Virus record (IMG/VR): IMGVR_UViG_2802429248_000011
Location: 1-19,329 of that record
Strand: one strand, 5' to 3'
Source: a virus
Lineage: Duplodnaviria > Heunggongvirae > Uroviricota > Caudoviricetes
DNA length: 19,329 nucleotides
Under the pieces are notes generated by a model. The model was given only the letters and a program-made list of their open reading frames with translations, had not been told where the DNA came from and ran no database searches. This document shows positions 4,463-19,329 of the stretch, piece by piece. Within the stretch, counting starts at the first letter, position 1; each line of letters begins with the position of its first letter. The position numbers and the translations under genes were made by a program.

Positions 4463-4611
4463 TAAGCAGACTCATTGTGTTTAGGGACATTGTACTGGAA
4501 GAAAACATTTTAAACATCAGGCAAATAACTAAGTCACCAGCTAAATAATAAGTTAACAGACATGGGTCCCGGGATGAGGTTCAACATCACCATTGCCCCA
4601 TTTAAAGCACA

Positions 4612-4637
4612 AAACCCGCTCATCAGCGGGTTTTCTA
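4612..4637 (+). terminator. Intrinsic terminator, plus strand
   Basis: AAACCCGC-TCATCA-GCGGGTTT followed by TTCTAATTTCTTT. Confidence 0.6.
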
Positions 4638-5049: not shown

Positions 5050-5058
5050 TGCTATAAT
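5050..5058 (+). promoter_or_regulatory. Extended -10 promoter element (TGcTATAAT)
   Basis: TGCTATAAT lies about 32 nt upstream of the ATG at 5090; no good -35 hexamer, consistent with an extended -10 promoter. Confidence 0.35.
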
Positions 5059-5089
5059 TAAAAAGCCACTTAACATCAGGACTTCAAAC

Positions 5090-5275
5090 ATGACTTCAAA
5101 TCAATCTGAAAACGAAATAGTTAATACTGTCAAAAAATATGCATCATGTGCTGACGATGCTTTGCAGGCAGGCAAAGAAAACGTTAAAGATAAATTTAGA
5201 AATTATCCACTGACTAGCGTGGTGGTCGCTCTAAGCATAGGGTTAACGCTTGGTTTTATTATTGGCAGAAAATAA
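5090..5275 (+). CDS. Small C-tail-anchored membrane protein (ElaB/YqjD/DUF883-like)
   Basis: 61 aa MTSNQSENEIVNTVKKYASCADDALQAGKENVKDKFRNYPLTSVVVALSIGLTLGFIIGRK. AGGA Shine-Dalgarno 8 nt upstream; C-terminal TM anchor ending in basic residues as in the DUF883 family. Confidence 0.55.
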   Translation: MTSNQSENEIVNTVKKYASCADDALQAGKENVKDKFRNYPLTSVVVALSIGLTLGFIIGRK

Positions 5276-5338
5276 TCTTAAGCCTCCCATAAGTCGTACA
5301 CAATCACATCTACCAATTAATGTTCCATTAGTAAAAAA

Positions 5339-5357
5339 CCACCTCCTGTGGAGGTGG
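5339..5357 (-). terminator. Intrinsic terminator (strong on minus strand, weak on plus)
   Basis: CCACCTCC-TGT-GGAGGTGG: perfect 8-bp stem, A6 on the plus side upstream (T6 on the minus strand after the stem), TTT on the plus side. Confidence 0.5.
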
Positions 5358-6403
5358 TTTAAGGATAGCAACAAAACACAACCTACTTTAAACGGCTATA
5401 TTCTGCTATATCTAAATAATAGGTTCTCTTTTATCATCCGGTGAAAAAGGGTTCAATGGTTGCCCCTCATCAGGACGCTCAACGGGCTCATCATCAGGCT
5501 TACGGTCATCAAAATCTGGATGTTCTGACATATTCCACCCTAGTATTTTTATGCAGGAAAGATTATTTACTCTTTCCGGTTGTCTTTTTTATTATCCTTA
5601 CCCTTACTATCCTCATTGTTTTTATTCCTGTCATGAGATTTTTCATTTGAATCACTTACATATAATGTATTCATGGGGACTCCAGTTTTTTAACAGCACA
5701 ATGCTGTATCTGTAATTATAGATGCAATTAATCATTATGGTATGTATGTTTCATGCACAAATCAGAAACGCATCTAGTGCTTTAATTAATATGGATTTTA
5801 TTGCTGTAGATTTACAAAAATTTTCATAATTAACCAGCAATATAAGACAAATATCTCATAACATGAGGGAAATCAAGCTCATTTAAAGCAATTTATAATT
5901 TTCATCCTACTATTTTCCCTACACTGCCAACACCAGTTTCGTCGCAACACTCTGACAAGACACCTATAAAATCAGTTTCGTTATCACCTTAATTTTCTTC
6001 ATGGGTAACAAACCGGTAATACATCGATAGCCTGATTGATGCACGTTACTGTTACCTCTTCCCTGCATCAGGATGGCTTCCCAAGATGATATGGTTAATC
6101 ACACTGGAACATTCACGCATAACCGTTTCCTTCATATCCTGCCGTTTTAGCATGTCTTTTCCCCTTCTTGTTAATATCAATGACTAACACAAATCTAAAA
6201 AAGCCAGCAATGTAAAAAAACTGCATTCACGGCAACCAGAATGGTTACCGTTCTGCACAAAGTTTATGTCCACAAAAAAACCACTCTGCGCGGCTTATTG
6301 ATATTTTCCACCGGTATGCATATAAGGCTCATCATTGGAAAACTCTTTGCACGTTTCCTTAGAAAATACAATCGTTATGTCGCCATCGTTCGGTGAAAAT
6401 CTT

Positions 6404-7156
6404 TTATCTTGTCACTTTTCTCAGTTGTGCTTCTGCATACGCTTCTTCCTGCCAGCACTTTGTTACCAGTTTATCAATGACGTCCGCATACCCCTTGTAC
6501 CACTGATAATCTGTCAGGTCCGGTACCAACTTCTGGACATGACGTCGTGCCAGTGTGGTCGGTAAACGACTAAACCTGTTTCCATTACAACGCCCACAAA
6601 TCTTATAAACCGGTACGCCATGAAGCCGGGTTCTTTTTTCATCCAGGACAATACCTTTACCCTTACACCCTCTGCACGCTGTGCTGACTTCGCCCTTACC
6701 ATGGCAATGCTGACATAGTTCCTTCCCCCATTCTTCCTTGATAACAGATTCCCCACTTCTGTAGTGTTTCACCACTTCGCGCAATACATTATGAAATCCC
6801 GTACCTGCACAATGTTCACAGCGAGCCTTACTTGCCGCAGACCTGGAATAATCAGCAAAGGCAAAATTCACAAGGTAAGGGATGATCTGTAACCGGGTTT
6901 CTTCACTCAATTTGTTCAATATCGGGTTATCCAGTGCCATCGCGTAATTGAGCAGACCTTCAATCGCAAACTGAGGGTTCTGAACACCAACTTTTGCCAG
7001 AAATAAGGCAAACCCAAGCGGTGCTTTCGACTGCACCATCCCCTGCGCAGCCATCACATCCGTAATTGTTAAACCACCAGAGCCTGTCGCCGGTGCGTCA
7101 TCGCTCAGTTTTGGTGATTTCGGGGAGTAATATTTCGGTAAGACTTCAAGGTTCAT
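6404..7156 (-). CDS. Q: Late-gene antiterminator Q (lambda Q family)
   Basis: Translation from ATG 7156 (GGAGA Shine-Dalgarno) begins MNLEVLPKYYSPKSPKLSDDAPATGSGGLTITDVMAAQGMVQSK..., closely paralleling the lambda Q N-terminus as recalled. Cys-rich zinc-binding pairs (CEHCAGTG, CQHCHGKG, CRGCKGKG, CGRCNGN). Longest ORF is 6404..7198. Confidence 0.88.
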   Translation of the reverse strand: MNLEVLPKYYSPKSPKLSDDAPATGSGGLTITDVMAAQGMVQSKAPLGFALFLAKVGVQNPQFAIEGLLNYAMALDNPILNKLSEETRLQIIPYLVNFAFADYSRSAASKARCEHCAGTGFHNVLREVVKHYRSGESVIKEEWGKELCQHCHGKGEVSTACRGCKGKGIVLDEKRTRLHGVPVYKICGRCNGNRFSRLPTTLARRHVQKLVPDLTDYQWYKGYADVIDKLVTKCWQEEAYAEAQLRKVTR

Positions 7157-7169
7157 GCTCGTTCTCCAC

Positions 7170-8165
7170 TTACGCCAGCACGCCAATTGCCAGCGCACGA
7201 TCGATAAAACGAAATATCAGCTTCAGCTGGGAGCCATACTTCTCTTCAAATGCCACGGTATCCGCATGCAGCTCGTCGTGATGCTTTCTGCACAAAGGCA
7301 ACACAAAGAGGTCATGCGCTTTTGTAGCCATTCCACCCTGACCGTGGCCTATCAGGTGGTGGGGATCATCAGCAGGCTTTCCACAACATGCACACGGCTG
7401 TGTCTTAACCCAGCGCGTGTACTTTTCGTTAACCCAGCGGCGACGTTTGGGGCGTAACATAAAAGACTCCGGCGACTCCGGATCCACTTTCAGCGCCAGC
7501 ACCTTTTTCGCTTTATCCTGGATAATGCTGGTGGCAGGAACCGAAGGCACAAGGTCACTTTCCCGGGTGACAGACGGCACAACAGGCTTCGGTAATCTCA
7601 GTGCCTTACGGGCTGCACTTTCCGGTAAGGCATCCGCCAGGTCATTACGAATCAGCCACCAGCACAGTTCCGGCATTGTCACAACGTGACTATCATCAAA
7701 ACCGAGATCCCGACGCACAACAGACAACACCCAACGGGCACAGTTATCCGTTGCCATTGATTCCAGCCGTTCCGTGAACTGATCGCGCAGCTGGTTATCG
7801 CAGTGCCAGCACAGACGGATTGCGCCCGGGGCGTGTCGCATTGTGGTCATGTTCTCGCTGTGCCAGTCGGAATGAGGCCACTGGCAGCCCTTTTCACGAA
7901 GTAACCAGCTTTCAAGACATTCCACGCCACCAGCACGACGGATCACTGCCTCATTGCGGAACACGGCCCGAACGGCAGGATCATCCGCCAGCGGTTGTGA
8001 TGCCGCCGGAACGGCACCACTGGCGAAAGATGAATAACGCTCCGGCTCAGGCTCCAGCAGGACACGCCCCTGCATAAACAGGGGCATCAGCTCTGAACCT
8101 GGCCTGAACAATACGATCCCCATACGCGGGGCAATTTCAGGGGTCAGCAGTGCTCTCACGGTCAC
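7170..8165 (-). CDS. DUF968-like protein with C-terminal HNH/zinc-finger-like Cys/His motif; start codon uncertain
   Basis: 331-aa ORF. C-terminal ...TQPCACCGKPADDPHHLIGHGQGGMATKAHDLFVLPLCRKHHDELH... resembles the DUF968 family found just upstream of Q in E. coli lambdoid prophages (memory-based). Several candidate starts. Confidence 0.7.
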   Translation of the reverse strand: MTVRALLTPEIAPRMGIVLFRPGSELMPLFMQGRVLLEPEPERYSSFASGAVPAASQPLADDPAVRAVFRNEAVIRRAGGVECLESWLLREKGCQWPHSDWHSENMTTMRHAPGAIRLCWHCDNQLRDQFTERLESMATDNCARWVLSVVRRDLGFDDSHVVTMPELCWWLIRNDLADALPESAARKALRLPKPVVPSVTRESDLVPSVPATSIIQDKAKKVLALKVDPESPESFMLRPKRRRWVNEKYTRWVKTQPCACCGKPADDPHHLIGHGQGGMATKAHDLFVLPLCRKHHDELHADTVAFEEKYGSQLKLIFRFIDRALAIGVLA

Positions 8166-8211
8166 CTCAGCGAACGGTATTGCATGAACGCAGAAGAAAA
8201 AAATTCAGCCA

Positions 8212-8469
8212 TCACGCAGTAAACTCCTTCACCAGCGTTTCAAACTGGCTTACCTGGCCTTCCAGTTCCGCCACGCAATCCACCAGCTCATCCACCGCCT
8301 TTTGTGTGCGGTGTTTTGCCTGCAGCAGATCACGCAGCGCCGGAGTAAGCTGCTTGCAGAGCGTATCCTTTGCCACGCTCGTTTTTTCCATCTGTTCAGC
8401 ACAACGAAGCATCTCCTGTGCCTGCCGACGAAGTTGTTCCGGTGAAACAGTGGTTGTTCTGTTATTCAA
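8212..8469 (-). CDS. Hypothetical small coiled-coil protein (85 aa)
   Basis: ORF MNNRTTTVSPEQLRRQAQEMLRCAEQMEK... whose TTG start overlaps the DnaB-like stop (TTGA), suggesting translational coupling; no recognised family. Confidence 0.45.
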   Translation of the reverse strand: MNNRTTTVSPEQLRRQAQEMLRCAEQMEKTSVAKDTLCKQLTPALRDLLQAKHRTQKAVDELVDCVAELEGQVSQFETLVKEFTA

Positions 8470-9866
8470 AATAAACGCTCCGTTTTACTGCCCGACATGC
8501 GTTTATTGCTGTATCTGCGCGGATTGCCCGGAGTCATGGGTGTGGAAAGAACCCGGGCACTCTCCTGGTCCACAGGCAGAAAATGTCCGTTATAAAAACG
8601 CCGGTAAATCGTCCCCAGAGAACCGTTACGTTGTTTCGTGATATTGATTTCTGCGATGCCCCTGGCCTGCGTATCCGGGTTGTACACTTCATCCCTGTAA
8701 AGCATCAGAATGATGTCTGCATCCGCCTCTATTTCTCCGGAATTTTTCAGGTCCGAGTTCATGGGGCGTTTATTGGGTCTGGATTCCACGCCGCGGGAGA
8801 GCTGGCTAAGAGCAATCAGCGGAAAACCGCCGGATTTTGCCAGGCTTTTAAGTCCCTTTGAGATTTCCCCCACCGCAAGGTCGTGACGCCCCGTGCTGCG
8901 GGTTTTAATCAGGCCGAGGTAATCGACCACCACCAGCGCCGTTTCCGGGTGTTTCATCCGGTGGTGCTTCGTGGTTGCACATATCTCATCAATGGTCAGG
9001 TTTGCCTGGTCCACCATCCAGATATTACGCCCCGTCATTCGTCCCACGCCCTGCGAGAAACGCGCCCAGTCTTCATCTTCAAAACGGGCAACAGACTTAA
9101 GACGTGATACCGGCATTCCTCCAGCCGCAGACACCATACGTTCACCAATCTGGATGTTCGACATCTCCATGGTGAACAGAAGCACACCATGCCCCTGCTC
9201 AGTCACCTTGTCGATGATGTCCAGCGCAAGTTCGGTTTTCCCCATCGAAGGACGGGCGGCAATGAATACCAGGTCTCCGGGCTCCATACCGCCCGTTTTT
9301 GCGTCCAGTTCATCAATACCGGTCATCAGCGCCCTGGATTTCTCCAGTCCCTGATTGCGGCATTCAACACGGTCGACCACTTCCGGAAGGACATCATCAA
9401 TGTGAACCGGCTGAATGACGCCCTTTCCTGTCGACAGTGTGACCATCATGTTCTGCGCATCCTTCAGAGCATCCTCGGCTGCTTCACAGGTATGCGCATC
9501 ACGTAAATTCTGTAATGCTTCAGTCAGTGTTTTTTCTGCATCGCGCAGTGCGGCATTTCGCCGCAGCGCTGCAACATAGTGCTCCAGTGAAGACTTCACC
9601 CAGGTTTTACGCCCGGTGTCGGTAATCACCGGGGCAAGTTCCGGCATCTCATTGCACAGCAGCACGGGGTCAATGACGCCGGATACGCGAGCCTGTCTGC
9701 AAATCCCCGCGTAAATATCCCTGTACTGACGCACGAAAAAGACATCCGCCGGAAGCGTGGCCAGAATATCCATCACTTCCGGATCAGCCCCACGCAGAAA
9801 AAACGCGCCAATCACGGCACCTTCCAGGTCATCGTTACGCCATGCCGGATTTGTCGTTTTTGTCAT
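8466..9866 (-). CDS. Replicative DNA helicase, DnaB-like
   Basis: 466 aa from ATG 9866 (ATGA overlap with the upstream DnaC-like stop). Walker A ...FIAARPSMGKTELAL... and DnaB C-terminal RecA-like domain motifs. Confidence 0.9.
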   Translation of the reverse strand: MTKTTNPAWRNDDLEGAVIGAFFLRGADPEVMDILATLPADVFFVRQYRDIYAGICRQARVSGVIDPVLLCNEMPELAPVITDTGRKTWVKSSLEHYVAALRRNAALRDAEKTLTEALQNLRDAHTCEAAEDALKDAQNMMVTLSTGKGVIQPVHIDDVLPEVVDRVECRNQGLEKSRALMTGIDELDAKTGGMEPGDLVFIAARPSMGKTELALDIIDKVTEQGHGVLLFTMEMSNIQIGERMVSAAGGMPVSRLKSVARFEDEDWARFSQGVGRMTGRNIWMVDQANLTIDEICATTKHHRMKHPETALVVVDYLGLIKTRSTGRHDLAVGEISKGLKSLAKSGGFPLIALSQLSRGVESRPNKRPMNSDLKNSGEIEADADIILMLYRDEVYNPDTQARGIAEINITKQRNGSLGTIYRRFYNGHFLPVDQESARVLSTPMTPGNPRRYSNKRMSGSKTERLF

Positions 9867-10753
9867 GCTGCCACACCTCTGATATGCGCACGGTAGCTTT
9901 CCCAACCAAACACCAGGCAGTTACACCCACCATCAGTAACGCGATCCACAATCCGTTCACCAATGGATTCTTTAAGCTGTTCAAACGTCAGGTTGCTGAT
10001 CAAAATTGTCGGTAAAACGCTTTCGTAACGCGCATTTATGATTTCCTGCAGGATGGTTATCTCTGTAGGCGTGCCGAACTGCACACCAACCTCATCAATG
10101 ATCAGCAGGTTCAGTGAGGCGAAATGAGCGAGAACTTCATCCTCGGTACGCTCTGAATTGTGGCGCCAGGTATTTTTCACAGCGCGGGTCAGTCGCATAA
10201 CATCCGTAATTTCGACGGTCGCCTGGTGGTGGCGAATAATATTTTTTGCCATTGATACAGCCAGATGATTTTTCCCGGTACCACAATTGCCAATCATGAC
10301 CATGCTGGTACCCGCAGCAAGACACTTCTCCCATGAACCGGCATAGCGCCGACAAGCCTCAAGATTTCTCTGTGCGTCAGCATTCACCGCCTGATAATTC
10401 TCAAACTCGCAGTTCTGGAAGCGGCGGGCAATACCAGCCCTGTCGAGTAATTCATGAACTTTCAGGATGCGTAACGCCTCCTGTACCTGATCCAGCTCAT
10501 TCGCAATGCAGGTCGGGCAACCAGACACCCGTTTGATGGTTTCCCCACGAACATCTGGCCCTTTCAACACCAGACGTGTGTATTTCCCGTGTTTCTCACA
10601 CTCAGCAGTATCCTCGCTTGTCAGCCAGTGTTCACAGCGCCACGGACGCTTCCCGACACGGGCAAACTGCATCTCCTCCTCCAGTTCCGCCCTGCGGTTG
10701 AGCAATTGCGCTTTGTCGTGTTGTGCGTAGTGTTTTTTTAACTGTTCAAACAT
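9863..10753 (-). CDS. Helicase loader, DnaC/IstB-like AAA+ ATPase
   Basis: 296 aa. Walker A GNCGTGKNHLA and Walker B LLIIDEVG; GAGGTGA Shine-Dalgarno before ATG 10753. Confidence 0.88.
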   Translation of the reverse strand: MFEQLKKHYAQHDKAQLLNRRAELEEEMQFARVGKRPWRCEHWLTSEDTAECEKHGKYTRLVLKGPDVRGETIKRVSGCPTCIANELDQVQEALRILKVHELLDRAGIARRFQNCEFENYQAVNADAQRNLEACRRYAGSWEKCLAAGTSMVMIGNCGTGKNHLAVSMAKNIIRHHQATVEITDVMRLTRAVKNTWRHNSERTEDEVLAHFASLNLLIIDEVGVQFGTPTEITILQEIINARYESVLPTILISNLTFEQLKESIGERIVDRVTDGGCNCLVFGWESYRAHIRGVAA

Positions 10754-10772
10754 TGTTCATCACCTCGAAAAA

Positions 10773-11582
10773 TCACCAGTTGAAGTTCGTTGAACCGTAG
10801 TCCTGCTCACTGAATCCCGAGATCGGGAGGCCGGTAGTTCGCCCACCTCCGGGAGCGGCTGGCTGTTGCCAAGATTCCTCGAAGTGACGATCGGGTCCAA
10901 AGAACGTCGCAGCCTGCTTCACGAACTGTGTGCCGATATTTCCGGTAGCTCGTACCCAGGCGGCATACCGCTTCACGCCATCAAGCATGGTCTCCGGTTT
11001 TATTCCCTCCCTGATACGGGCTTTCCAGGCTTTGAAGGCTGCTGACTTGGAATTGCCACCGGCACGTTTGGGATATTCCTGCCAGGCCTGTTCAAATTCC
11101 GGTGAATATTCCTGTCGGGCAGAACGCGCTGGTGCAGACGCGTCAGCGGATGCGCCAATAGTTGATTCATTGACTGGTTCTTTGACTGGTTCAAAAGAGT
11201 GACTGGTTCTGGGTGAATCTCCTGCACTACCCCCTAGTGCAACTCCTGCACCACCTGGTGAATTTGTTGCACTAGGTAGTGAATTATTTGCACTACCACC
11301 TAGTGAATCTTTTGCACCATCAAGACGAAGAAGATAAATATTGCTCGAGTTGCCTTTTTCACCTTTCCGGGAAACTTTTTTTACCAGTCCCGATTCACAA
11401 AGAGCCGTAATATGATTCATCACAGAACGTTTGCTAATCTCGCACTGATCAGCAATATGCTGATAGCTGGGCCAGCACTCGCCCTGATCGCTGGCATTAT
11501 CAGCCAGCTTAATCAGAACCAGTTTTCGCAATGGATTCCCCACACGAATTTTCATCGCTTTAACCATCAGCTCCATGCTCAT
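10773..11582 (-). CDS. Replication initiator (lambda O-like; N-terminal winged-HTH, low-complexity linker, C-terminal domain)
   Basis: 269 aa. GGGAGG Shine-Dalgarno before ATG 11582. Direct repeats with internal dyad symmetry (iterons) lie in the linker-coding part of the gene, as in lambda O/ori. Confidence 0.8.
   Translation of the reverse strand: MSMELMVKAMKIRVGNPLRKLVLIKLADNASDQGECWPSYQHIADQCEISKRSVMNHITALCESGLVKKVSRKGEKGNSSNIYLLRLDGAKDSLGGSANNSLPSATNSPGGAGVALGGSAGDSPRTSHSFEPVKEPVNESTIGASADASAPARSARQEYSPEFEQAWQEYPKRAGGNSKSAAFKAWKARIREGIKPETMLDGVKRYAAWVRATGNIGTQFVKQAATFFGPDRHFEESWQQPAAPGGGRTTGLPISGFSEQDYGSTNFNW
11223..11310. repeat. Origin-of-replication iterons (four ~20-22 bp repeats with internal dyad symmetry) inside the initiator gene
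   Basis: TGCACTACCCCCTAGTGCAA / TGCACCACCTGGTGAATT / TGCACTAGGTAGTGAATT / TGCACTACCACCTAGTGAAT in tandem. Adjacent at 11165-11215 are three copies of TGACTGGTTC. Confidence 0.7.
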
Positions 11583-11803
11583 AGAGCACCTCCCAGGCGT
11601 TTAAACATTTTTCCGGACTGAAACGCCATCAACGGATAGCTAATGGTGTAGTTACGCCCCAGTAATTCACACACAACTTTCTGGCTTTCGGTGCTGACCA
11701 GGCAAACCCGCAGAACGTGACCGTTGCTGGTGGCGAACCACTGCCCCACACGGGGGCAACGGTTGTATCGGTGATACAGGGAATTAACGATGTAGCGGAT
11801 CAT
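11579..11803 (-). CDS. Hypothetical protein (74 aa)
   Basis: GGAGGTG Shine-Dalgarno; ATGA overlaps with both the upstream ORF and the initiator gene downstream; no recognised family. Confidence 0.55.
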   Translation of the reverse strand: MIRYIVNSLYHRYNRCPRVGQWFATSNGHVLRVCLVSTESQKVVCELLGRNYTISYPLMAFQSGKMFKRLGGAL

Positions 11804-11994
11804 GGACGCACCTCCGCCGTAGTTACGTATTTAACCGGGCTACCTTTCATTGAGATGGTTTCACACATCTCTGCCGCTTTCAGTTCCGCCGTTTTTCTGG
11901 ATTTATAGCGACGGTGCCAGACAGATACATCCGTGCGAACTGATACATCGTTTCTGTATTCCGTAGTGGAGATGATGATTTCGTAACTAATCAT
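11800..11994 (-). CDS. Hypothetical protein (64 aa)
   Basis: GGGAGG Shine-Dalgarno 7 nt before ATG 11994, which overlaps the upstream stop (ATGA); MISYEIIISTTEYRNDVSVRTDVSVWHRRYKSRKTAELKAAEM... Confidence 0.55.
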   Translation of the reverse strand: MISYEIIISTTEYRNDVSVRTDVSVWHRRYKSRKTAELKAAEMCETISMKGSPVKYVTTAEVRP

Positions 11995-12653
11995 GGGCGT
12001 ACCTCCCATTGATTACGGCGAAAAGCAGTGTGATTCAGGCTGGTTTCAGCCTCATGGAATGCTCCAATGCAGCTCTCGTAGTACCGCATTGTGCGTAGAC
12101 TTAACCCAAGCTGAAGCATCATCAGGCCATCAAGGGTGATGTAATAACCACGCAGGGAGTCACCATAGATGTGGTAAGTACCCGGTATGAAGTTGCGGGT
12201 AAAAAATTCGCGCGAGCAGTTCAGATACTCGATTTTGTCGACGATGTTCTGGTGCATGCGCTTAAAGTGGCAGGCAACATGCAGGGAGAAAATAACAGCT
12301 TTGCCGTTGACGACTTCGATTTTGAGGAATGGGGAAGTTGGGACTGTAGCCATGATGGCAGCCTCCTTGATCGGTGAAAAACTTCCACCACCGGAGCTGC
12401 GAAACTCATGGGTGGTGAACTGAACAGGGTTCGCAGTACCGGCGATCAAGGAAACCGGCGAGCCTTTCGGCTCCCCTGCCCAGCCCACCATAATTCTGGC
12501 GTGCGTGAGCGCAGACGATAAAAAAGACGCTGGCGCGTCGTATATCGCCTTGATCAATTCCGGGCTGCGACCCCCGGCACCCGCTTTATAAGGTGCTGGA
12601 ACAGTGTAACGTCCCGAAATTACAGAATCAATATTTTGGCTTGAAACATTCAT
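11991..12653 (-). CDS. Hypothetical protein with Gly/Ser/Pro/Ala-rich N-terminal region and folded C-terminal domain; start codon uncertain (open frame extends to 12887; strong internal Shine-Dalgarno + ATG at 12353)
   Basis: 897-nt open frame. The first in-frame ATG (12653) lacks a Shine-Dalgarno; an internal ATG at 12353 has AAGGAGG 8 nt upstream. C-terminal domain ...YYITLDGLMMLQLGLSLRTMRYYESCIGAF... is not confidently assignable. Confidence 0.5.
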   Translation of the reverse strand: MNVSSQNIDSVISGRYTVPAPYKAGAGGRSPELIKAIYDAPASFLSSALTHARIMVGWAGEPKGSPVSLIAGTANPVQFTTHEFRSSGGGSFSPIKEAAIMATVPTSPFLKIEVVNGKAVIFSLHVACHFKRMHQNIVDKIEYLNCSREFFTRNFIPGTYHIYGDSLRGYYITLDGLMMLQLGLSLRTMRYYESCIGAFHEAETSLNHTAFRRNQWEVRP

Positions 12654-12677
12654 ATGCTTACTGGTATTTTTACTAAC

Positions 12678-12767
12678 GCAAATGTTCTTGGATGTTACTG
12701 GCTTACTTCTTTGTGAGGTTGCCTTTACTAACGTTGAGCGAGCCGGGTCACTACCCGGCTTTTTTTC
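12678..12767 (+). ncRNA. Candidate oop-like antisense small RNA (about 90 nt)
   Basis: Promoter-like TTGAAA (12641-12646), 18-bp spacer, TG-extended -10 TGgTATTTT (12662-12670), and a strong plus-strand terminator ending at 12767. Antisense to the Rha-2 stop and the region upstream of the next gene. Confidence 0.3.
12741..12767 (+). terminator. Intrinsic terminator oriented against the pR-type operon (antisense terminator)
   Basis: Plus strand AGCCGGGT-CACT-ACCCGGCT followed by T7; on the minus strand the hairpin is preceded by A7 and has no U-tract. Confidence 0.6.
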
Positions 12768-13473
12768 ACCGCTGCCAACCAATAACCTGAAATAACCCCA
12801 TTTTCGGGTGATACCAGCGAGTCCCTCGCGGTTCTGCTTCCGCCATAACCTGATGGAAAGCAGCCATAAACGGTTCCACGGCAACAATTGCGCGACGTGA
12901 CAACAATCCGTCCGGCGTCATGAACTCATGGGTGTCTGTAGGAATTTGATAAGCGTTCACCAGATTGCGGCATTTATCATCTGACAAACCGGTTTTCGCT
13001 TTCAGTTGGCGATATCCGGCATAGCCCTCACGAATGTTGCCCTTTTTGATTTGCTCAACTGTTTCGGCAACGTGGCTGACTTTTTCTTCCACCTGAGTGA
13101 TCCGTTTCTGCTGACGAACAGCTTCAAGAGCCATCGCGGCAACCATTTCGATTTCGCTCATTGGCTTACGGATCTGTTCTTCCAGTTCGCGCCAGCGATC
13201 TACTAGGCGGGCTGTGAATTCGGGACAAAGCTGTGCGACGACAATGATGCTGTCGCGCTTACCTTGTTCGCCTTCGAAGATGTAAGCACCTACATTTCGT
13301 TTTAATCCTAAGTTGTTGATTATTTCGAAATTCGCCATTGGCGCACTTCGAATAATCCCCTTATCCATGAGCCTTTCAATGCTGCGCTTAACATCTTTGT
13401 GTTGGCTGCCCACCAACTCTGCGATTTCAAGGCTGGTCATGGATGCTTTGCCGTTAAAAATTGCGGTGTTCAT
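12766..13473 (-). CDS. Rha-family phage regulatory protein (antirepressor-like)
   Basis: 235 aa. N-terminal ...MTSLEIAELVGSQHKDVKRSIERLMDKG... fits the Rha domain pattern; its ATG overlaps the cro-like stop (ATGA). Confidence 0.78.
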   Translation of the reverse strand: MNTAIFNGKASMTSLEIAELVGSQHKDVKRSIERLMDKGIIRSAPMANFEIINNLGLKRNVGAYIFEGEQGKRDSIIVVAQLCPEFTARLVDRWRELEEQIRKPMSEIEMVAAMALEAVRQQKRITQVEEKVSHVAETVEQIKKGNIREGYAGYRQLKAKTGLSDDKCRNLVNAYQIPTDTHEFMTPDGLLSRRAIVAVEPFMAAFHQVMAEAEPRGTRWYHPKMGLFQVIGWQR

Positions 13474-13733
13474 TGTTGGTCTCCTGTGGGCTTGTCATCC
13501 TCTGTGTGCGCTAAGCTTGGATGTGGAAAAAGCTCTGGTAGGTCTGGACGAAATTCATACGCTTGGATCTTTCCGTCGACAGCTGCAACCAATAACGGCA
13601 CAAATTCTGGTGAAATCTTGTTCTTGCAGTTCAACCAATCGCAGACTGTTGACTGGGCCTTTCCGCATCGCTTGGCTAAGGCTTGCTGACTTCCAAGAAT
13701 CTCAATAGCTTTCTCTATGGCTTTATGTTTCAT
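13470..13733 (-). CDS. cro: Cro-like repressor (Cro/YdaS-family HTH)
   Basis: 87 aa from ATG 13733 (GGAG Shine-Dalgarno): MKHKAIEKAIEILGSQQALAKRCGKAQSTVCDWLNCKNKISPEFVPLLVAAVDG.... Divergent from the CI gene. Longest ORF extends to 13784. Confidence 0.8.
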   Translation of the reverse strand: MKHKAIEKAIEILGSQQALAKRCGKAQSTVCDWLNCKNKISPEFVPLLVAAVDGKIQAYEFRPDLPELFPHPSLAHTEDDKPTGDQQ

Positions 13734-13755
13734 AATCGCATCTCCTATTGAACGC

Positions 13756-13784
13756 ATAATAACAACAGGAAAAGCGATATTCAA
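13756..13784 (-). promoter_or_regulatory. pR-type promoter for the cro-like operon
   Basis: On the minus strand, TTGAAT (-35), a 17-bp spacer and TATTAT (-10), about 20 nt upstream of the cro-like Shine-Dalgarno. Confidence 0.5.
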
Positions 13785-13803
13785 CGTTAAACCTAGAACA
13801 TTT

Positions 13804-13817
13804 ATCGGAAAGCCGAT
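13804..13817. promoter_or_regulatory. Palindromic operator candidate in oR (ATCGGAAAGCCGAT); a weaker related site at 13765-13778
   Basis: 14-bp dyad matching two sites beside the pL-type promoter (ATCGATAAACCGAT, ATCGGTAAACCTAT); located between divergent cI and cro start regions. Confidence 0.45.
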
Positions 13818-13852
13818 AGACTAGCCAAGATAGAGAGGGGAGGAAAATCGCA

Positions 13853-14545
13853 ATGACATTTTCAGAACGACTTGATTTAGCTATGCGCAACGCAAAATTT
13901 ACGCAAGGTAGGCTGGCCAAAGAAGTGGGTATGGCTCAGTCCAGTGTCAATCAACTACTTAACAAAGCCAACGGTTCCAGAAAAACAGTCGAAATAGCAA
14001 AAGTTTTGGGCGTTAACCCGGAATGGCTCGCATCGGGTGTTGGCCCAATGGAAATCGTGACCTCTGCAGACTCACACCAAATACGTAACATTTCTGAAGA
14101 TTGGGTTACTGATTCGTATGTCGTGGATGTTTTAGACATCAGATATAGTTGCGGACCTGGCAGTTATAACTCTGATTTTCCTGACATTGTCAGATCTATA
14201 GCGATAGAACCAGGATACGCATCAAGAGTTTTTGGCGGCAGACCAGCATCAGCAATCAAAGCAATAAACGCCCACGGCGACAGTATGAAAGGCACAATAG
14301 ACCCTGAAGACTTGGTATTTGTAGATGTATCAGTTCGCACATTTAATGGTGATGGTATATACGCCTTTACATACTCTGGAACATCGCACATCAAAAGACT
14401 TCAAAAAATCAAAGATACTCTAACGGTGATATCTGACAACCCAGCTTACAAGGATTGGGCTATCGAACCGGAAGACTTTGAACAACTTCACATTGACGGA
14501 AAAGTAATTGTCAGTTGGCCTATGACACTACACCGTTTTGCATAA
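13853..14545 (+). CDS. cI: CI-type prophage repressor (N-terminal HTH, C-terminal LexA-like S24 autopeptidase domain)
   Basis: 230 aa. N-terminal HTH (..QGRLAKEVGMAQSSVNQLL..) and C-terminal S24 motifs (..HGDSMKGTIDPEDLVFVD.. and ..IKRLQK..). GGAGG Shine-Dalgarno; divergent from cro. Confidence 0.9.
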   Translation: MTFSERLDLAMRNAKFTQGRLAKEVGMAQSSVNQLLNKANGSRKTVEIAKVLGVNPEWLASGVGPMEIVTSADSHQIRNISEDWVTDSYVVDVLDIRYSCGPGSYNSDFPDIVRSIAIEPGYASRVFGGRPASAIKAINAHGDSMKGTIDPEDLVFVDVSVRTFNGDGIYAFTYSGTSHIKRLQKIKDTLTVISDNPAYKDWAIEPEDFEQLHIDGKVIVSWPMTLHRFA

Positions 14546-14563
14546 GCAAAAATCATTTAACCC

Positions 14564-14589
14564 GCCCACTCTTAAGTGGGCTTTTTTTT
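14564..14589 (+). terminator. Intrinsic terminator after the repressor gene
   Basis: GCCCACT-CTTA-AGTGGGC followed by T8. Confidence 0.75.
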
Positions 14590-14596
14590 GGAAAAA

Positions 14597-14638
14597 ATCG
14601 ATAAACCGATTGACAGGCGAAATCGGTAAACCTATTAT
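14597..14638 (+). promoter_or_regulatory. pL-type early-left promoter with two operator dyads
   Basis: Consensus TTGACA (14610-14615), 17-bp spacer, TATTAT (14633-14638). Dyads ATCGATAAACCGAT (14597-14610) and ATCGGTAAACCTAT (14622-14635) overlap the -35 and the spacer/-10. Confidence 0.6.
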
Positions 14639-14687
14639 TATGGCATAGGTATCGAACTCACCAAAGCAATTATAGAGGATGAGAAAA

Positions 14688-15185
14688 ATGTCATCGTATA
14701 TGGGGTTACCAACAAATCAGCACGATGCTCTTGAGAATATTCAGCTCTTAGTCGGGGCTGGTGCACTACTGTATAGCAGCAATAACCCTGAGTTAATTGA
14801 ACTTGCCAGCTCCATCCTGGCTGTAACTCAAAAATATAGCCTCACAGCGTCGCGTTTATGCAAACAAAATTTAGCTATTAATTCCCAGAATCGGATTAGC
14901 ACTCAACGCGAAGCCTGCGGCTTAACAACCGCCGAACTCGCCAGGCTGCTCGATCTCGATGAAGAAATTATCATCCAGTGGGAGAGCGGAGAGTATGAAC
15001 CAACCATCAGCATGCTTATCCCACTGGCAAATATTCTTGGCTGCGATCCGATGTGGCTGTTAACTGGCGAGGTTACTCCTCCGGAGCAACCAAAAAGTGA
15101 GGAGCAGCAACACCATGACGCATCTCAACAAGTTTGCTCCTTATCTCGCGAAGCTCTTCTACGGAAGAACCAATACCAATGGTGA
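14688..15185 (+). CDS. HTH (XRE-family) protein, first gene of the early-left operon; N-terminal domain of unknown function
   Basis: 165 aa from ATG 14688 (AGAGGA Shine-Dalgarno). XRE-type HTH in residues ~95-150 (..CGLTTAELARLLDLDEEIIIQWESGEYEPTISMLIPLANILGCDPMWLLTG..). Occupies the position of N in lambda but is not N-like. Confidence 0.7.
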   Translation: MSSYMGLPTNQHDALENIQLLVGAGALLYSSNNPELIELASSILAVTQKYSLTASRLCKQNLAINSQNRISTQREACGLTTAELARLLDLDEEIIIQWESGEYEPTISMLIPLANILGCDPMWLLTGEVTPPEQPKSEEQQHHDASQQVCSLSREALLRKNQYQW

Positions 15186-15313
15186 CATAATCACCGCTTC
15201 GCCCCTCAAGGTACATGCGAACATTTTTATCAATCATTGCGGAAACAGTCTCAATATGAAAACACTTCTGAGACTCGCTATATAGCAGAACATATAAGTC
15301 AGCTGAGGAAGCC

Positions 15314-15679
15314 GTGAAAAAGTTCGAAAACATAACTGCTCTCCATGTTGATGACTTTGATTATACAAACCCGGAACTTCTCCCGGAGGTTGTAAAGGCA
15401 ATAGATGTTGCCGATATAGTGATTAGAGGAAAGAGAATCGTCAAAAACAGGCTCGCATGCACTTCAGGAGCAATGACAGAAACAACCTCACAACAAGATG
15501 ATTATGAAGGCATTTGTCTGGAGCCGGACTCATTTGCGGTAAATGTTTATCATTTATTGCATGCAACACAGGTATTACATATGTCAAGTAATCACGAAAC
15601 AAAAACACTTGGCAGCGAAATTCTGAATTTTGCATGTGAATATGCAAAAGCTGCTGCCGAAAAAGAATTAGCACAATAA
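15314..15679 (+). CDS. Hypothetical protein (121 aa)
   Basis: GTG start with GAGGAA upstream; balanced composition; the antisense frames over its body are Leu/His/Cys-rich and look non-coding. Confidence 0.5.
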   Translation: MKKFENITALHVDDFDYTNPELLPEVVKAIDVADIVIRGKRIVKNRLACTSGAMTETTSQQDDYEGICLEPDSFAVNVYHLLHATQVLHMSSNHETKTLGSEILNFACEYAKAAAEKELAQ

Positions 15680-15875
15680 CAATAAATATTCCCTGAATGT
15701 TTATTACGGTTTTATCGCCGGGGATTGTTGCAACCTTTATTCGCAGGTGATTATGTTATGACTTTCCTGAAACATAAGGCATCGTATAAAACTGCCTGCC
15801 TCATTGTACAACATGGAGATTCTTATCTTCATATAGCCAACCTGTATTTGCGCAAAGCATATGGGAGATAAGTCA

Positions 15876-16064
15876 ATGGAAGAAAAACAACAAAACATAA
15901 CACATAAAAAAGTAAGAGTGTTGCTAACCATTGAAAATGGGAAGGTAATTCACTCAAAACATCTGTTGGATAATGAATTTGTTGGCTGCATGGATACATT
16001 TTTGTTGGTGGTAAAAAGAGCGGGTTACACTATTATTCCACCAGCAAAGGAGCAAACATTATGA
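15876..16064 (+). CDS. Hypothetical protein (62 aa)
   Basis: GGGAG Shine-Dalgarno before ATG 15876; stop overlaps the next ATG (ATGA). Confidence 0.5.
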   Translation: MEEKQQNITHKKVRVLLTIENGKVIHSKHLLDNEFVGCMDTFLLVVKRAGYTIIPPAKEQTL

Positions 16065-16642
16065 ATCATTCAGAGTTCCGACCAGAAGTTACGCCACACG
16101 GTATAAAAATTGGCAATACAACCATAGATTATGCCGAGGCCGTACAGCGACTTAATGATGGTGAATACGATAATCCAAATTCTCAAGGTTTAAGAATTAT
16201 GCAGTGTATTGCTGAAGCCGATGATGCCGGATTACTGGGACGATTTTCAGTCGATATGAAAGTTGCTCAATGGCGATGGCTGTATGTGACAACATTTATA
16301 AATGAAGAGGAAGACAAGAACGGCACCATTGATATCCCTAACGATAATGGAACTACAGATCGCGCAGTTATTTACAAGGGTAAACATGGTTGCCTGAGTA
16401 TCTACCCAGGGCCACTTCGCATTGCCCTGCAAAACCATGTCGAATGGAGATTCATTGAAAAATATGGCGAAGCTGAAGGCATGGGGCGAGTTCTGTTTCT
16501 CTATCAAAAAATGCTCATCGCAGATCCTGATAATGGCTTCATTGTCTCTGCTATGGGACGAGAAGGGCTTGAACTTCTTCTGGATGAAATGATTCACGAT
16601 CTGAATACTCATGGTATGCCAGAAACACCATTGGCACATTAA
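16061..16642 (+). CDS. Hypothetical protein (193 aa), acidic
   Basis: AGGAG Shine-Dalgarno 8 nt upstream; ATGA coupling to the upstream ORF; no recognised motif. Confidence 0.7.
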   Translation: MNHSEFRPEVTPHGIKIGNTTIDYAEAVQRLNDGEYDNPNSQGLRIMQCIAEADDAGLLGRFSVDMKVAQWRWLYVTTFINEEEDKNGTIDIPNDNGTTDRAVIYKGKHGCLSIYPGPLRIALQNHVEWRFIEKYGEAEGMGRVLFLYQKMLIADPDNGFIVSAMGREGLELLLDEMIHDLNTHGMPETPLAH

Positions 16643-16644
16643 AC

Positions 16645-16926
16645 ATGTCAAATCAGAATAAAATTAATGTATTTCAGGTTGAATCAAAACATAAAACACC
16701 TGTGATAAAACACGTTCGCCGCCATACACTCATCTATACGCCAGAAGAGTTTATGGCAATTCCAATGATAAAGAAGTTTATTCGTGATAATCCCGATCAC
16801 ATTGCTATAGATAAACATAACGGAGAAATAATGTTATCACGCGAACTTGCCGAAATTTACTGTAACGTGAATAACGGTAAAAAATTGAAAAAGGCAATCC
16901 GAAAAAAATCAGGAGTAACAAAATGA
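16645..16926 (+). CDS. Hypothetical protein (93 aa) with Lys-rich C-terminal tail
   Basis: Starts 2 nt after the upstream stop and overlaps the next start (ATGA); C-terminus ..NNGKKLKKAIRKKSGVTK. Confidence 0.62.
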   Translation: MSNQNKINVFQVESKHKTPVIKHVRRHTLIYTPEEFMAIPMIKKFIRDNPDHIAIDKHNGEIMLSRELAEIYCNVNNGKKLKKAIRKKSGVTK

Positions 16927-17291
16927 ATAGCATCGAGACACAATGTTCCTCATCTGAAGTTATGAACTATGACCCGAATCTGACGTTGTACGGACGCATG
17001 GCAAAACAAACTGTTCTATTAACTTTCGGGCTATGGGAATACCGCGAAACATTCGAAGTTTCTGTCGGCGGCAATCTGACCGGACTGGATGTTATCAGTT
17101 GCGCCATTGAAAGCCTGTACGCAACGCTGCCTTATGAAGAAGTCGAGGATGAGCGCGATATCATAGCCACCATTAATATCGGCGGCATGGAATGCAAGGA
17201 TGAAAACCTGAACGGAGAACTCTGGCTTGCCGGGATGCTTATCTCGGCAGAAATCATCAGTATTGAACCCGCTACAAACATACGACTCTGA
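16923..17291 (+). CDS. Hypothetical strongly acidic protein (122 aa)
   Basis: AGGAG upstream; about 20 acidic versus about 6 basic residues (..LPYEEVEDERDIIATINIGGMECKDENLNGE..). Confidence 0.62.
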   Translation: MNSIETQCSSSEVMNYDPNLTLYGRMAKQTVLLTFGLWEYRETFEVSVGGNLTGLDVISCAIESLYATLPYEEVEDERDIIATINIGGMECKDENLNGELWLAGMLISAEIISIEPATNIRL

Positions 17292-17322
17292 AGTTCTCAC
17301 AACTCAGGGAGCAGGAGAAAAA

Positions 17323-17565
17323 ATGTTCGCTTTGATTAATCAGGGGCAACTGTATACCGATAGTGCTGGCTACCCGATAAAAATTATTCGCTGCATAAAC
17401 AACACTGTGTTGTACAGAAGAATGGATGGGCGAACACAGTCGGTAAAAATAAACGATTTTAATGAACTGTTTGAACGAATCGATCACCAGGAATACCGAC
17501 AAATTCTGGCAGAAACAGAGCAGGAAGCTCATCTGAAAAAATTACGGGTCATGAAAAGGAAGTAA
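17323..17565 (+). CDS. Small protein resembling the DUF4222 family common next to xis/int in lambdoid prophages
   Basis: 80 aa from ATG 17323 (AGGAG Shine-Dalgarno): MFALINQGQLYTDSAGYPIKIIRCINNTVLYRRMDGRTQSVKINDFNELFERI...; family assignment from memory. Confidence 0.55.
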   Translation: MFALINQGQLYTDSAGYPIKIIRCINNTVLYRRMDGRTQSVKINDFNELFERIDHQEYRQILAETEQEAHLKKLRVMKRK

Positions 17566-17568
17566 AGA

Positions 17569-17715
17569 ATGAATAAAGCGTTTGAGCTATGGGTACGCCA
17601 GCGTTACGGCAATCGCTATGACCTGACGCGAGATGTTGACGGTTTCCACTGTCGTGAAATTGTGAAACGAATGTTTGAAGTGTGGTGTTACTGTCGTGGA
17701 CTGAATGTTGTGTGA
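17569..17715 (+). CDS. Hypothetical small protein (48 aa)
   Basis: AGGAAG Shine-Dalgarno 6 nt upstream; MNKAFELWVRQRYGNRYDLTRDVDGFHCREIVKRMFEVWCYCRGLNVV; its stop overlaps the xis Shine-Dalgarno. Confidence 0.45.
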   Translation: MNKAFELWVRQRYGNRYDLTRDVDGFHCREIVKRMFEVWCYCRGLNVV

Positions 17716-17723
17716 GGTAATGC

Positions 17724-17960
17724 ATGGGCAATGTGATTCAACTGGCTCCCAATGAATGGGTTTGTGAAAGCGTTCTTATCGCAATTACCGGGCTCAAACC
17801 AGGCACAATTCTTCGGGCCCGGAAAGAATGCTGGATGGTTGGAAGAGAGTATATTCACGTATCACCAGACGGTAATCCAAAGCCTTCCAGCGAATGTATG
17901 TATAACAGAAAAGCAATAGATGCCTGGGTCGCTTCAATGAAAAACAAACAACCTGGGTGA
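17724..17960 (+). CDS. xis: Excisionase-like protein (DUF1233-type putative Xis)
   Basis: 78 aa MGNVIQLAPNEWVCESVLIAITGLKPGTILRARKECWMVGREYIHVSPDG... directly upstream of the integrase; GAGGT Shine-Dalgarno. Confidence 0.7.
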   Translation: MGNVIQLAPNEWVCESVLIAITGLKPGTILRARKECWMVGREYIHVSPDGNPKPSSECMYNRKAIDAWVASMKNKQPG

Positions 17961-18015
17961 TTTAATGCCATGAAATATGTAAGCTCGTATCGCTCTTGGG
18001 CGTCTGGAGGTATGA

Positions 18016-19329
18016 ATGGATAAAGTTAAATATCCAACAGGCGTCGAAAACCACGGTGGCACATTGCGCATCTGGTTTAATTTTAAAGGTAAACGTGTCA
18101 GGGAAAATCTTGGTGTCCCTGACACTGCCAAGAACAGGAAGATTGCCGGAGAACTGCGGACATCGGTATGTTTTGCCATCCGCACAGGAAGCTTTGATTA
18201 TGCTGCACAGTTCCCTGACTCCCCTAACCTTCAGGCTTTTGGGGTAAGTAAAAAAGAAATTACGGTGAAAGAACTTGAAGAAAAGTGGCTGGATCTGAAA
18301 CGAATGGAAATCTCTGCAAATGCATTCAATCGTTATGAATCCGTTGCAAGAACGATGGTCCCGAAAATTGGAGGTAGCAGACTGGTGTCAACGGTGACCA
18401 AAGAGGAATTGCTGTATATCAGGAAAGATTTGCTGACCGGATACCAAAATCCAACAAAAGGTAAGGCTCCGGTAAAAGGGCGAAGCGTTATCACAGTAAA
18501 TTATTACATGACGACAATCGCTGGAATGTTTCAGTTTGCTGCAGATCACGGTTACTTAGAAGCAAATCCCTTCCAGGGAATTAAGCCTCTTAAAAGAGCC
18601 AGGGCAGAGCCAGATCCGCTAACTCGTGACGAATTTATTCGCCTGATAGATGCTTGCCGACATCAGCAGACGAAAAACCTGTGGTCATTGGCTGTGTACA
18701 CAGGAATGCGTCACGGTGAACTGGTCTCCCTGGCCTGGGAAGATATCGATCTGAAAGCAGGAACTATTACTATCAGGCGCAATTATACGAAACTCGGTGA
18801 GTTCACTCTACCTAAAACTGAAGCAAGTACAAACAGGGTTGTGCATCTTATCCAGCCCGCTATCAGTGTCCTGAAAAATCAGGCTGAAATGACAAGACTG
18901 GGTAAGCAGCACAACATCAAGGTTCAACTACGTGAATATGGACGTTCAGTGAATCATGAATGTACTTTCGTGTTTAACCCCCAGGTGGTTAGAAAAAGCA
19001 AACAGGTCGGTTTTATCTACAAGGTAGATTCTATTGGCGACTCATGGGAAACAGCCATTAAGCGTGCGGGCATCAGGCACCGGAAAGCATACCAGTCACG
19101 ACACACTTATGCGTGCTGGTCATTATCTGCCGGAGCAAACCCAAGCTTCATTGCCAGCCAGATGGGCCATGCAAGTGCCCAGATGGTGTTCAATGTATAC
19201 GGAGCATGGATGACTGACAGTAATGCAGAACAGATCGCAATGCTGAATCAGAAGCTGGCAGATTATGTCCCAATGATGTCCCATGGTCACCAAAGTGACA
19301 CAAGAGACTTATTAAAATCAGTGGGTTAG
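18016..19329 (+). CDS. int: Tyrosine-recombinase integrase (phage integrase family)
   Basis: 437 aa. C-terminal catalytic region with ..RHTYACWSLSAGANPSFIASQMGHASAQMVFNVYGAW..; GGAGG Shine-Dalgarno; stop codon is the last triplet of the window, so att lies beyond it. Confidence 0.92.
   Translation: MDKVKYPTGVENHGGTLRIWFNFKGKRVRENLGVPDTAKNRKIAGELRTSVCFAIRTGSFDYAAQFPDSPNLQAFGVSKKEITVKELEEKWLDLKRMEISANAFNRYESVARTMVPKIGGSRLVSTVTKEELLYIRKDLLTGYQNPTKGKAPVKGRSVITVNYYMTTIAGMFQFAADHGYLEANPFQGIKPLKRARAEPDPLTRDEFIRLIDACRHQQTKNLWSLAVYTGMRHGELVSLAWEDIDLKAGTITIRRNYTKLGEFTLPKTEASTNRVVHLIQPAISVLKNQAEMTRLGKQHNIKVQLREYGRSVNHECTFVFNPQVVRKSKQVGFIYKVDSIGDSWETAIKRAGIRHRKAYQSRHTYACWSLSAGANPSFIASQMGHASAQMVFNVYGAWMTDSNAEQIAMLNQKLADYVPMMSHGHQSDTRDLLKSVG

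Follow-up and report, generated by a model that had tools for sequence, protein, structure and literature searches.

Which transcript, if any, ends at a strong intrinsic terminator that faces against the direction of a phage early operon? The question is raised by a locus in the 19,329-nucleotide (nt) stretch of DNA analysed here (the window; positions 1 to 19,329 of IMG/VR record IMGVR_UViG_2802429248_000011, assigned to the Caudoviricetes). Its pR-type operon runs on the minus strand through a Roi/Rha-like gene into a module consisting of the RNA genes isrK and C4 and an antirepressor gene (ant). Segment 12640-12768, which separates the Roi/Rha-like stop codon from the promoter of this module, appears to form an autonomous, moron-like transcription unit on the plus strand. 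Judged from its sequence, it is most likely a real small antisense RNA gene, previously undescribed, which resembles OOP of phage lambda in topology. We regard the existence of the RNA as drawn below as fairly probable; the statement as a whole, which joins the autonomous RNA unit to a cis-antisense mechanism, is put forward more tentatively.

A candidate promoter-to-terminator unit opposite the early right operon

The terminator was predicted by scanning and by folding at 12740..12766 on the plus strand and consists of a 9-bp G+C-rich stem, a 4-nt loop and seven thymines. Its hairpin (12740-12761) reads GAGCCGGGT-CACT-ACCCGGCTT, with a perfect core AGCCGGGT/ACCCGGCT at 12741-48/12753-60 and the T7 run at 12760-12766. 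It has a folding energy of -15.2 kcal/mol and is the first listed of 34 terminator-like sites in the window (9 pairs, 6 of them G-C). Because the tail that follows the hairpin on the minus strand (GCTCAACGTTAGTA / GCTCAACG) lacks a U-tract, the hairpin is predicted to terminate transcription of the plus strand only. It combines the G+C-rich stem, the short loop, the immediate U-tract and the restriction to one strand by which intrinsic terminators are recognized.

About 70 nt 5' of the terminator hairpin and on the same strand lies a candidate promoter. It is composed of the -35 hexamer TTGAAA (12641-12646), seen in the sequence and by the consensus scan, and an extended -10 element TG-n-TATTTT (12662..12670; TG at 12662-12663, hexamer at 12665-12670), which reads TG-n-TATCTT in type B of the three sequence types described below. 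With a spacer of 18 nt and TG one base upstream of the -10 hexamer, TTGAAA-18-TG-n-TATTTT conforms to the pattern of a sigma-70 extended -10 promoter (spacing 16-18 nt), and this predicted promoter is kept in types B and C. The initial annotation had placed these hexamers and the hairpin with its T7 run on the plus strand, where sequence and scan agree in finding them; it was also right in locating the terminator at the 3' end of the minus-strand Roi/Rha-like gene (its Rha-2), against the operon direction, for the T-run shares one base with the TGA codon of that gene (12768..12766) and the U-tract exists on the plus side only. In the scan, the candidate promoter scores 9/12 with TG, which equals the presumptive pR and exceeds the isrK promoter as read (8/12). 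A TG extension occurs in 3 of the 26 promoter-like sites of the window, the presumptive pR being among these. By arithmetic from the scan, a site of at least 9/12 is expected on the right strand of a 70-nt stretch 5' of a given terminator with a chance of about 5%, and one that also carries TG with a chance of about 0.5%. A stronger argument than these figures, as far as sequence comparison goes, is that the same pair of promoter and terminator is called in two further sequence types. Over the 2.4 kb upstream (10240 to 12641) the consensus scan found no further plus-strand promoter-like site able to feed the terminator, and a search near or overlapping the candidate promoter for the CI-operator-like palindrome TATCGG-N4-CCGATA was negative.

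The promoter-to-terminator unit is known in three sequence types, A, B and C. Type A is that of the window and recurs with 100% identity over the 146-nt segment in E. coli NZ_CP141863; type B is carried by the Stx2 phage ASU11, by eight Stx2a/2d-converting phages and by PhiR49_2, and type C is found for example in E. coli MS8345. A further type A copy lies in E. coli SE11 (NC_011415, 2159337-2159483), and the O145:H28 strain RM13516 has the unit at 2303766-2303911 of NZ_CP006262. In types B and C, too, the scan recognized this terminator and this promoter (TTGAAA-18-TG-n-TAT[T/C]TT). When type A is compared with type B, the flanks are identical (190/190 across isrK and C4; 62/62 in the 3' end of the roi-like gene), and within the unit identity is high in the -35 block (7/7), the -10 block (5/6), a 10-mer, GTTCTTGGAT (10/10), the GTTGAGN block (6/7) and the terminator block (25/27), as against the spacer (12/18), the leader (6/13) and the hairpin region (22/42). 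Blocks that look functional thus seem to have been retained and the sequence between them replaced. The spacer keeps its length of 18 nt though its sequence differs, TTGAAA is the same in all three types (the only variants, each in a single contig, are TTGGAA in L209 and a change of the base preceding the hexamer in L210), and the T-run measures 6-8 nt in all copies. Alignment of window positions 12640-12768 with ASU11 (L001 1741-1865) showed 100% identity in the flanks (190 nt, 62 nt) and 46-67% identity in the spacer, leader and hairpin parts, a contrast that looks like cassette-like replacement between conserved anchor blocks.

The edges of the unit can be read from phages that possess isrK-C4-ant without it. 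Similarity to these phages (Stx1a phages; phiP27 at its isrK locus) ends at about 12634-12639, and the roi-like gene of phiP27 matches the window from 12772 on only. The indel therefore coincides with the unit from promoter to terminator, as is characteristic of moron-like inserts. This comparison also shows that the isrK promoter does not need the blocks of the unit.

Among complete E. coli genomes, 33 of 5,426 were matched by the type A query and 237 of 5,426 by the type B query (about 4-5% overall), and in the matched genomes the unit always sits between a Rha/Roi-type gene and the open reading frame (ORF) labelled 'ash', which is discussed below. About 90 loci were found in viral contigs by pattern scanning, and about 100 viral or metagenome contigs carry the unit in all. 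Pattern scans of viral and metagenome contigs yielded no fourth type and no other context, only variants; a loose pattern, GTTCTTGGAT-N-GTTGAG, was discarded as it returned mostly chance matches, and tighter patterns together with the metagenome scan gave types A, B and C only. Searching the phage collection with the 146-nt window segment by blastn at distant settings gave no match despite the presence of type B phages, and a type B query was used instead. When the translated 'ash' segment was compared with genome contigs, only four distant isrK/C4 loci were detected (Scandinavium, Symbiopectobacterium, Arsenophonus), none with a comparable divergent unit upstream of isrK.

The predicted RNA and its possible action

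The predicted transcript covers 12676..12766 on the plus strand, its start being deduced from the position of the -10 element and its end lying within the T-run; a length of about 90 nt is expected (range about 85-92 nt). Folding of the RNA gives -31.8 kcal/mol (z = -3.8 versus shuffles); in all three types the predicted fold comprises the terminator and one internal hairpin, and the z-scores range from -3.2 to -3.8. The 10-mer lies near the predicted 5' end (12684..12693) and is invariant in all three types; the leader that flanks it is just 38-57% identical between them. The internal hairpin (12700..12723) is swapped in sequence from type to type and retained as a hairpin: GGC-UU-ACUUC-UUUGU-GAGGU-U-GCC in type A, GGAGC-C-GUUU-UAUGCG-AAAC-A-GCUCC in type B and GGC-CUGC-UUUAU-GCAG-UU-GCC in type C. 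Changes within type A affect its loop (UUUGU, UCUGU, UCAGU, UUUUGU) and one U-G/U-A wobble position. Directly 5' of the terminator, the linker GTTGAG(C/T) (12733..12739) is conserved between types.

RNAalifold adds a long-range helix in which invariant GUUCUUGG pairs with YYAA..GAGY (12727-30 and 12736-39) just 5' of the terminator, a partner open to the 10-mer on the plus strand only. In the consensus fold of a nine-sequence alignment, 95.8% of the cells are paired, compared with 36-51% for slid partners, and three pairs show double changes, values that come from a structure derived from these same sequences and from three lineages only. The long-range helix fails on the minus strand, where 1 to 5 of its 8 pairs turn into A-C. 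Similarly, the stem variants GAGGU (type A), GCUGGG (terminator of L022) and GUC (internal hairpin of L235) pair on the plus strand only; the changes in L022 and L235, like those in the long-range helix, are tolerated there as G-U.

No conserved ORF was found in the predicted RNA. A 37-codon plus-strand ORF (12683-12796) crosses the terminator; its ATG at 12683 stems from a type A-specific 6-nt insertion and is missing in types B and C, and the ORF is unlikely to be coding. A small peptide as the product of the locus was rejected on the grounds that this ATG is restricted to type A, and there is no toxin-like ORF on the minus strand. In type A only, two copies of TTTACTAACG, a perfect 10-nt direct repeat (12669-12678 and 12724-12733), enclose the 5' part of the predicted RNA; types B and C have merely (A)ACGTT or TGTT at both places. 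The repeat may be a trace of the exchange of the variable segment.

We propose that transcription of the unit diverges from that of the isrK promoter and converges on that of pR, and that its RNA would act as a cis-antisense RNA on pR read-through transcripts by pairing with the spacer of about 90 nt between the roi-like stop codon and isrK. The read-through transcript, which would contain the perfect complement in this spacer, appears to be the only certain partner. Their duplex might be cut by RNase III, and/or convergent transcription might interfere with that from pR; the roi-like message would be lowered as a consequence, and pR transcription would be uncoupled from the IsrK-C4-ant module. 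OOP-like action is the most likely mode because no ribosome site is covered.

How well does this proposal stand up to simpler explanations? The hairpin with its T7 run could be a one-way insulator that shields the roi-like gene, cro and the immunity region from stray plus-strand transcription, be it divergent firing near the isrK promoter or antisense transcription from the ant and replication region, and the promoter-like hexamers would then give rise to no dedicated RNA. We consider such a terminator-only function unlikely. It would be in line with the terminator being the strongest in the window and the promoter reaching just 9/12, and with the finding that phiP27 has a different plus-facing hairpin with a T-rich tail at the same spot, in an intergenic region of about 50 nt where no promoter was called. 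However, an insulator leaves unexplained why the -35 hexamer, the TG, the -10 hexamer, the 10-mer, the fixed 18-nt spacer and the hairpin were retained, why the indel relative to other phages takes in the promoter, and which transcripts it would stop, given the lack of other plus-strand promoter-like sites within 2.4 kb upstream. Another idea is that the locus is free of function, a recombination linker in which a leftover terminator happens to lie beside a chance match to a promoter. Promoter-like matches are common, and three types within a narrow phylogenetic range would fit such a linker, but its conserved blocks lie within a segment that is otherwise replaced between types and is bordered by identical flanks, and the hairpin was kept in all three replacements; we thus find an entirely functionless linker hard to believe. 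A function exerted on the minus strand is decidedly improbable, too. According to this explanation, the hairpins behind the roi-like stop codon would serve the pR mRNA as a 3' stabiliser or for its processing, or would constitute a put-like RNA that helps polymerase past the isrK terminator. Both hairpins, which are perfect and 17 nt apart, can indeed fold on the minus strand, two type B variants pair there only, and pR transcripts bound for the replication genes have to get past the isrK terminator, immediately upstream of which the element is located. Yet the long-range helix is impossible on that strand, the conserved A7/T7 run would have no role in the absence of a U-tract on the minus side, and there are phages with isrK-C4-ant in the same place which do without the element. 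A relationship to the put antiterminators of HK022 was rejected, as no similarity to HK022 27600-34000 (putL, putR) was detected beyond chance 9-10-mers. The put RNA of HK022 is about 70 nt long and forms two adjoining irregular stem-loops (PMC9378689), unlike the two separate perfect hairpins of the candidate region.

Alternatively, the RNA may be made but act in trans as an Hfq-type small RNA (sRNA) whose 5' 10-mer pairs with a host mRNA or with the transcript of another phage, the antisense position being incidental. E. coli prophages carry many Hfq-type sRNAs (PMC4104026; PMC13502914). A conserved 5' segment, a stem-loop and a U7 terminator make up the architecture of enterobacterial Hfq sRNAs, and the cis target is devoid of a ribosome site. 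In spite of this, we judge a role in trans to be rather unlikely: the predicted fold of the RNA engages the 10-mer in base pairs, and this 10-mer has no above-chance complement in the two sequences searched, the window and the whole Stx2 phage ASU11. For the window, exact and one-mismatch complements and a duplex-energy scan of both strands remained at chance level, the best non-self value (-13.5) being weaker than the shuffled-seed mean; for the complete ASU11 genome, 4 matches were obtained versus 4.2 expected. Pairing with the IsrK/C4/ant leader, as calculated with duplexfold, was no better than with shuffles for types A and C. The start codon region of roi in ASU11 (L264, 38032-38043; CATCCATGACCA) matches the complement of the 10-mer at 10 of 12 positions, which is chance level and is not kept at the roi-like start of the window. 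It is tempting to speculate about a specificity-typed antisense RNA: the hairpin, replaceable as one of three cassettes between invariant anchors on otherwise identical flanks, would determine the pR transcripts open to attack, and a resident prophage might thereby target, in trans, lambdoid phages (Stx2 phages among them) that share its cassette, whether they are incoming or co-resident. If this were true, it would amount to an RNA-based layer of exclusion or cross-talk ahead of the IsrK-C4 antirepressor switch; we assign a low probability to it.

Several points weigh against the proposed antisense RNA gene. The promoter match is modest, and 9/12 by itself means little because the consensus scan found 26 promoter-like sites in the window versus 32 expected from shuffles, that is, no enrichment. 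Covariation statistics are weak, with three independent lineages that all come from E. coli-type prophages, and the range of the unit as a whole is narrow, being limited to this kind of prophage. In type B, the long-range helix is mostly G-U, and the internal-hairpin variants GGAAC and AGAGC (12 and 5 contigs) pair on the minus strand only. The picture that emerges from the strand tests for structure is accordingly mixed, as would be expected if the two members of a cis-antisense pair each folded into the mirror-image hairpin. The cis target contains neither coding nor ribosome-binding sequence, which makes a regulatory payoff less obvious. Modules of isrK, C4 and ant occur without the unit in the same operon position in L004 and phiP27. 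Finally, the literature on IsrK, on prophage sRNAs of enterohaemorrhagic and enteropathogenic E. coli, on oop of Stx phages and on phage sRNAs describes no RNA at this position, and no transcript record was found there.

The operon and its IsrK-C4-antirepressor module

The minus-strand operon begins with a pR-like promoter, TTGAAT-17-TATTAT (13784..13756, consensus scan), which is followed by a Cro/YdaS-like gene (ATG at 13732), the Roi/Rha-like gene and the candidate region. The Roi/Rha-like early gene (13473..12766, minus strand) encodes 235 amino acids with a Phage_pRha domain and matches to anti-repressor/Roi-type PHROGs (phrog_63); its relatives are annotated as Roi or Rha family. Past the candidate region, the operon contains two small ORFs and genes for an O-like initiator, a DnaC-like loader and a DnaB-like helicase, the replication genes extending over 11582..8466. 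A cI-like repressor gene (13853..14545) is located on the plus strand, as is a pL-like promoter. A perfect operator-like palindrome, TATCGG-N4-CCGATA, is present between the cI-like and cro-like genes (13803-13818). Weaker copies (14596-14611, 14621-14636) overlap a plus-strand promoter, TTGACA-17-TATTAT (14610-14638; 11/12), just past the cI-like gene, and promoter and copies together are probably pL/OL. A plus-strand terminator is found behind the cI-like gene at 14564-14581. Elsewhere in the window (3526-3967, minus strand), a full-length match to the cspA thermoregulator 5' untranslated region family (157.9 bits) points, at the level of sequence, to a gene of the cold-shock protein type, located in the prophage's late or nin part.

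Downstream of the candidate unit in operon direction, isrK (12596..12520, minus strand; Rfam RF01394, 57.6 bits versus a gathering score of 50) has its own terminator at 12539..12526 and is followed by the C4/CI-type antisense RNA gene (12495..12408, minus strand; RF01695, 85 bits versus a gathering score of 45). The isrK promoter, TTGATT (12631..12626)-17-TACACT (12608..12603), with +1 at 12596 (12603..12631, minus strand; 8/12), was read from the sequence and placed by means of the start of the isrK model; IsrK has its own promoter in Gifsy-1 (PMC4825925). The candidate promoter stands back-to-back with this promoter, and the candidate RNA would therefore be divergent from the isrK transcript and not antisense to it.

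Both RNA genes lie inside an ORF (12653..11991) that is called 'ash family protein' in RefSeq relatives and 'hypothetical protein' or 'antirepressor' in others. In 65 distinct relatives, variable sites are distributed over codon positions 1/2/3 as 43/47/38 in the first 300 nt of the ORF versus 32/29/73 in the part encoding the Rha domain. Because a third-position bias is missing, the first 100 codons of the 'ash' ORF do not appear to be under coding selection. The real antirepressor-type coding sequence probably begins at ATG 12353, preceded by the Shine-Dalgarno (SD) sequence AAGGAGG at 12368..12362, and occupies 11991..12353 on the minus strand, as assigned by the codon-position test, by Pfam and PHROG matches and by its sequence. 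The RNA genes are located at the start of the ORF (window 12354-12653, minus strand) in L001, L005 and L006 as well. These findings call for an annotation correction, in that the first 300 nt of 'ash family protein' and long 'antirepressor' ORFs belong to RNA genes.

GAUCAAGG, which the C4 loop CCUUGAUC matches, occurs in IsrK as well as at the ant SD, and CCUUGAUC pairs with GAUCAAGGAGG. The order isrK, C4, ant and the complementarity of the C4 loop to the ant SD are those of an IsrK-C4-ant module. Its recognition code in the window (12408-12596, 12353-12375) and in L001 is GAUCAAGGCG in IsrK, CCUUGAUC in the C4 loop and GAUCAAGGAGG at the ant SD. L005 (about 1230-1470) has UGUUAUCGGCG, CCGAUAACG and UGUUAUCGGAGG; all three sites change together, like in P1/P7 heteroimmunity. 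C4 specificity differs between the window and type B on one side (GAUCAAGG) and type C on the other (UGUUAUCGG), yet the 10-mer is unchanged, which is why the candidate does not seem to be tied to the C4 recognition code. IsrK and C4 gate the antirepressor and hence prophage induction. If the candidate RNA is made, it would be the third regulatory RNA, beside these two, in the early right operon of a widespread E. coli prophage group that includes Stx2-converting phages (ASU11 and several Stx2a/2d phages).

Comparison with known systems

The IsrK-C4-ant neighbour of the candidate is a true member of the group formed by Gifsy-1 IsrK, STnc1160 (C4) and AnrP, with c4-ant of P1/P7 and seqA-CI-seqC of P4 as related systems. 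Descriptions of these IsrK/C4 systems mention no RNA gene that diverges from the isrK promoter on its upstream side (PMC4825925).

As an autonomous promoter-to-terminator insert in a lambdoid prophage, which occurs in prophages of pathogenic E. coli, Stx2 phages included, the unit is reminiscent of prophage morons and prophage sRNAs (AgvB/AsxR, HnrS, Pas sRNAs; STnc6030 of BTP1). These sRNAs, however, are located in late or PR' regions, whereas the candidate belongs to the early right operon, and Rfam yielded no AgvB/AsxR match.

The sar RNA of P22 is encoded in the immI region and is antisense to the ribosome site of ant. Like sar, the predicted RNA would be a small antisense RNA of a temperate phage, with its own promoter and terminator, encoded just upstream of an antirepressor module. 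It differs from sar in not covering the ant ribosome site, as the ant SD is about 300 nt away, beyond two RNA genes and the candidate promoter. In phiP27 (L101 1400-1500), the roi-like stop codon is directly followed by another plus-facing hairpin, GGCCGG-N-CCGGCC followed by TTTCTTATTT, with the GTG of the ant gene L15 lying about 50 nt further on. TTGATT-18-TATTGT can be made out by eye inside the L15 start; the scan did not call it (8/12). The phiP27 layout would cover the ant ribosome site and is in this respect closer to sar than is the window.

OOP RNA of lambda is a 77-nt transcript from the pO promoter which is antisense to the 3' end of cII and overlaps about 50 nt of the cII coding sequence. 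It forms a duplex with pR mRNA that is cleaved by RNase III (Krinke and Wulff 1987, as cited in PMC7067206). Direct alignment of the candidate with lambda oop revealed no homology of sequence or structure, only generic terminator columns. A search of plus-strand positions 12640-12770 against all 4227 Rfam families gave no match, the best scores (AS-pc01, 15.4 bits; SorY, 14.9 bits; E>1) being far under the gathering scores. Rfam holds no OOP model and the lambda oop region itself matches no family, which makes this silence uninformative with regard to OOP. The candidate overlaps the upstream gene by its stop codon only (12766-12768) and not by about 50 nt of coding sequence, this gene is Roi/Rha-like and not cII, and with its promoter side the candidate borders on the isrK promoter and not on gene O. 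Hence, the OOP-like character assigned by the initial annotation holds for topology and not for homology or for a cII/O boundary, and of the complementarity it had predicted, that to the stop region of the Roi/Rha-like gene is borne out in the form of the stop codon overlap; the leader of the downstream gene would not be complementary, being occupied by isrK and C4, whose own inferred promoter lies beyond that of the candidate. What remains in common is a short RNA, predicted here, that is transcribed against the pR operon from a constitutive-looking promoter of its own, in the interval separating an early regulatory gene from the replication genes, and that ends at a strong intrinsic terminator located where the upstream gene has its 3' end. 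Provided that the RNA is made, it would represent a non-homologous counterpart of OOP in phages where a Roi-like gene and an ant module replace cII/O of lambda, and small antisense RNAs facing pR would have arisen more than once.

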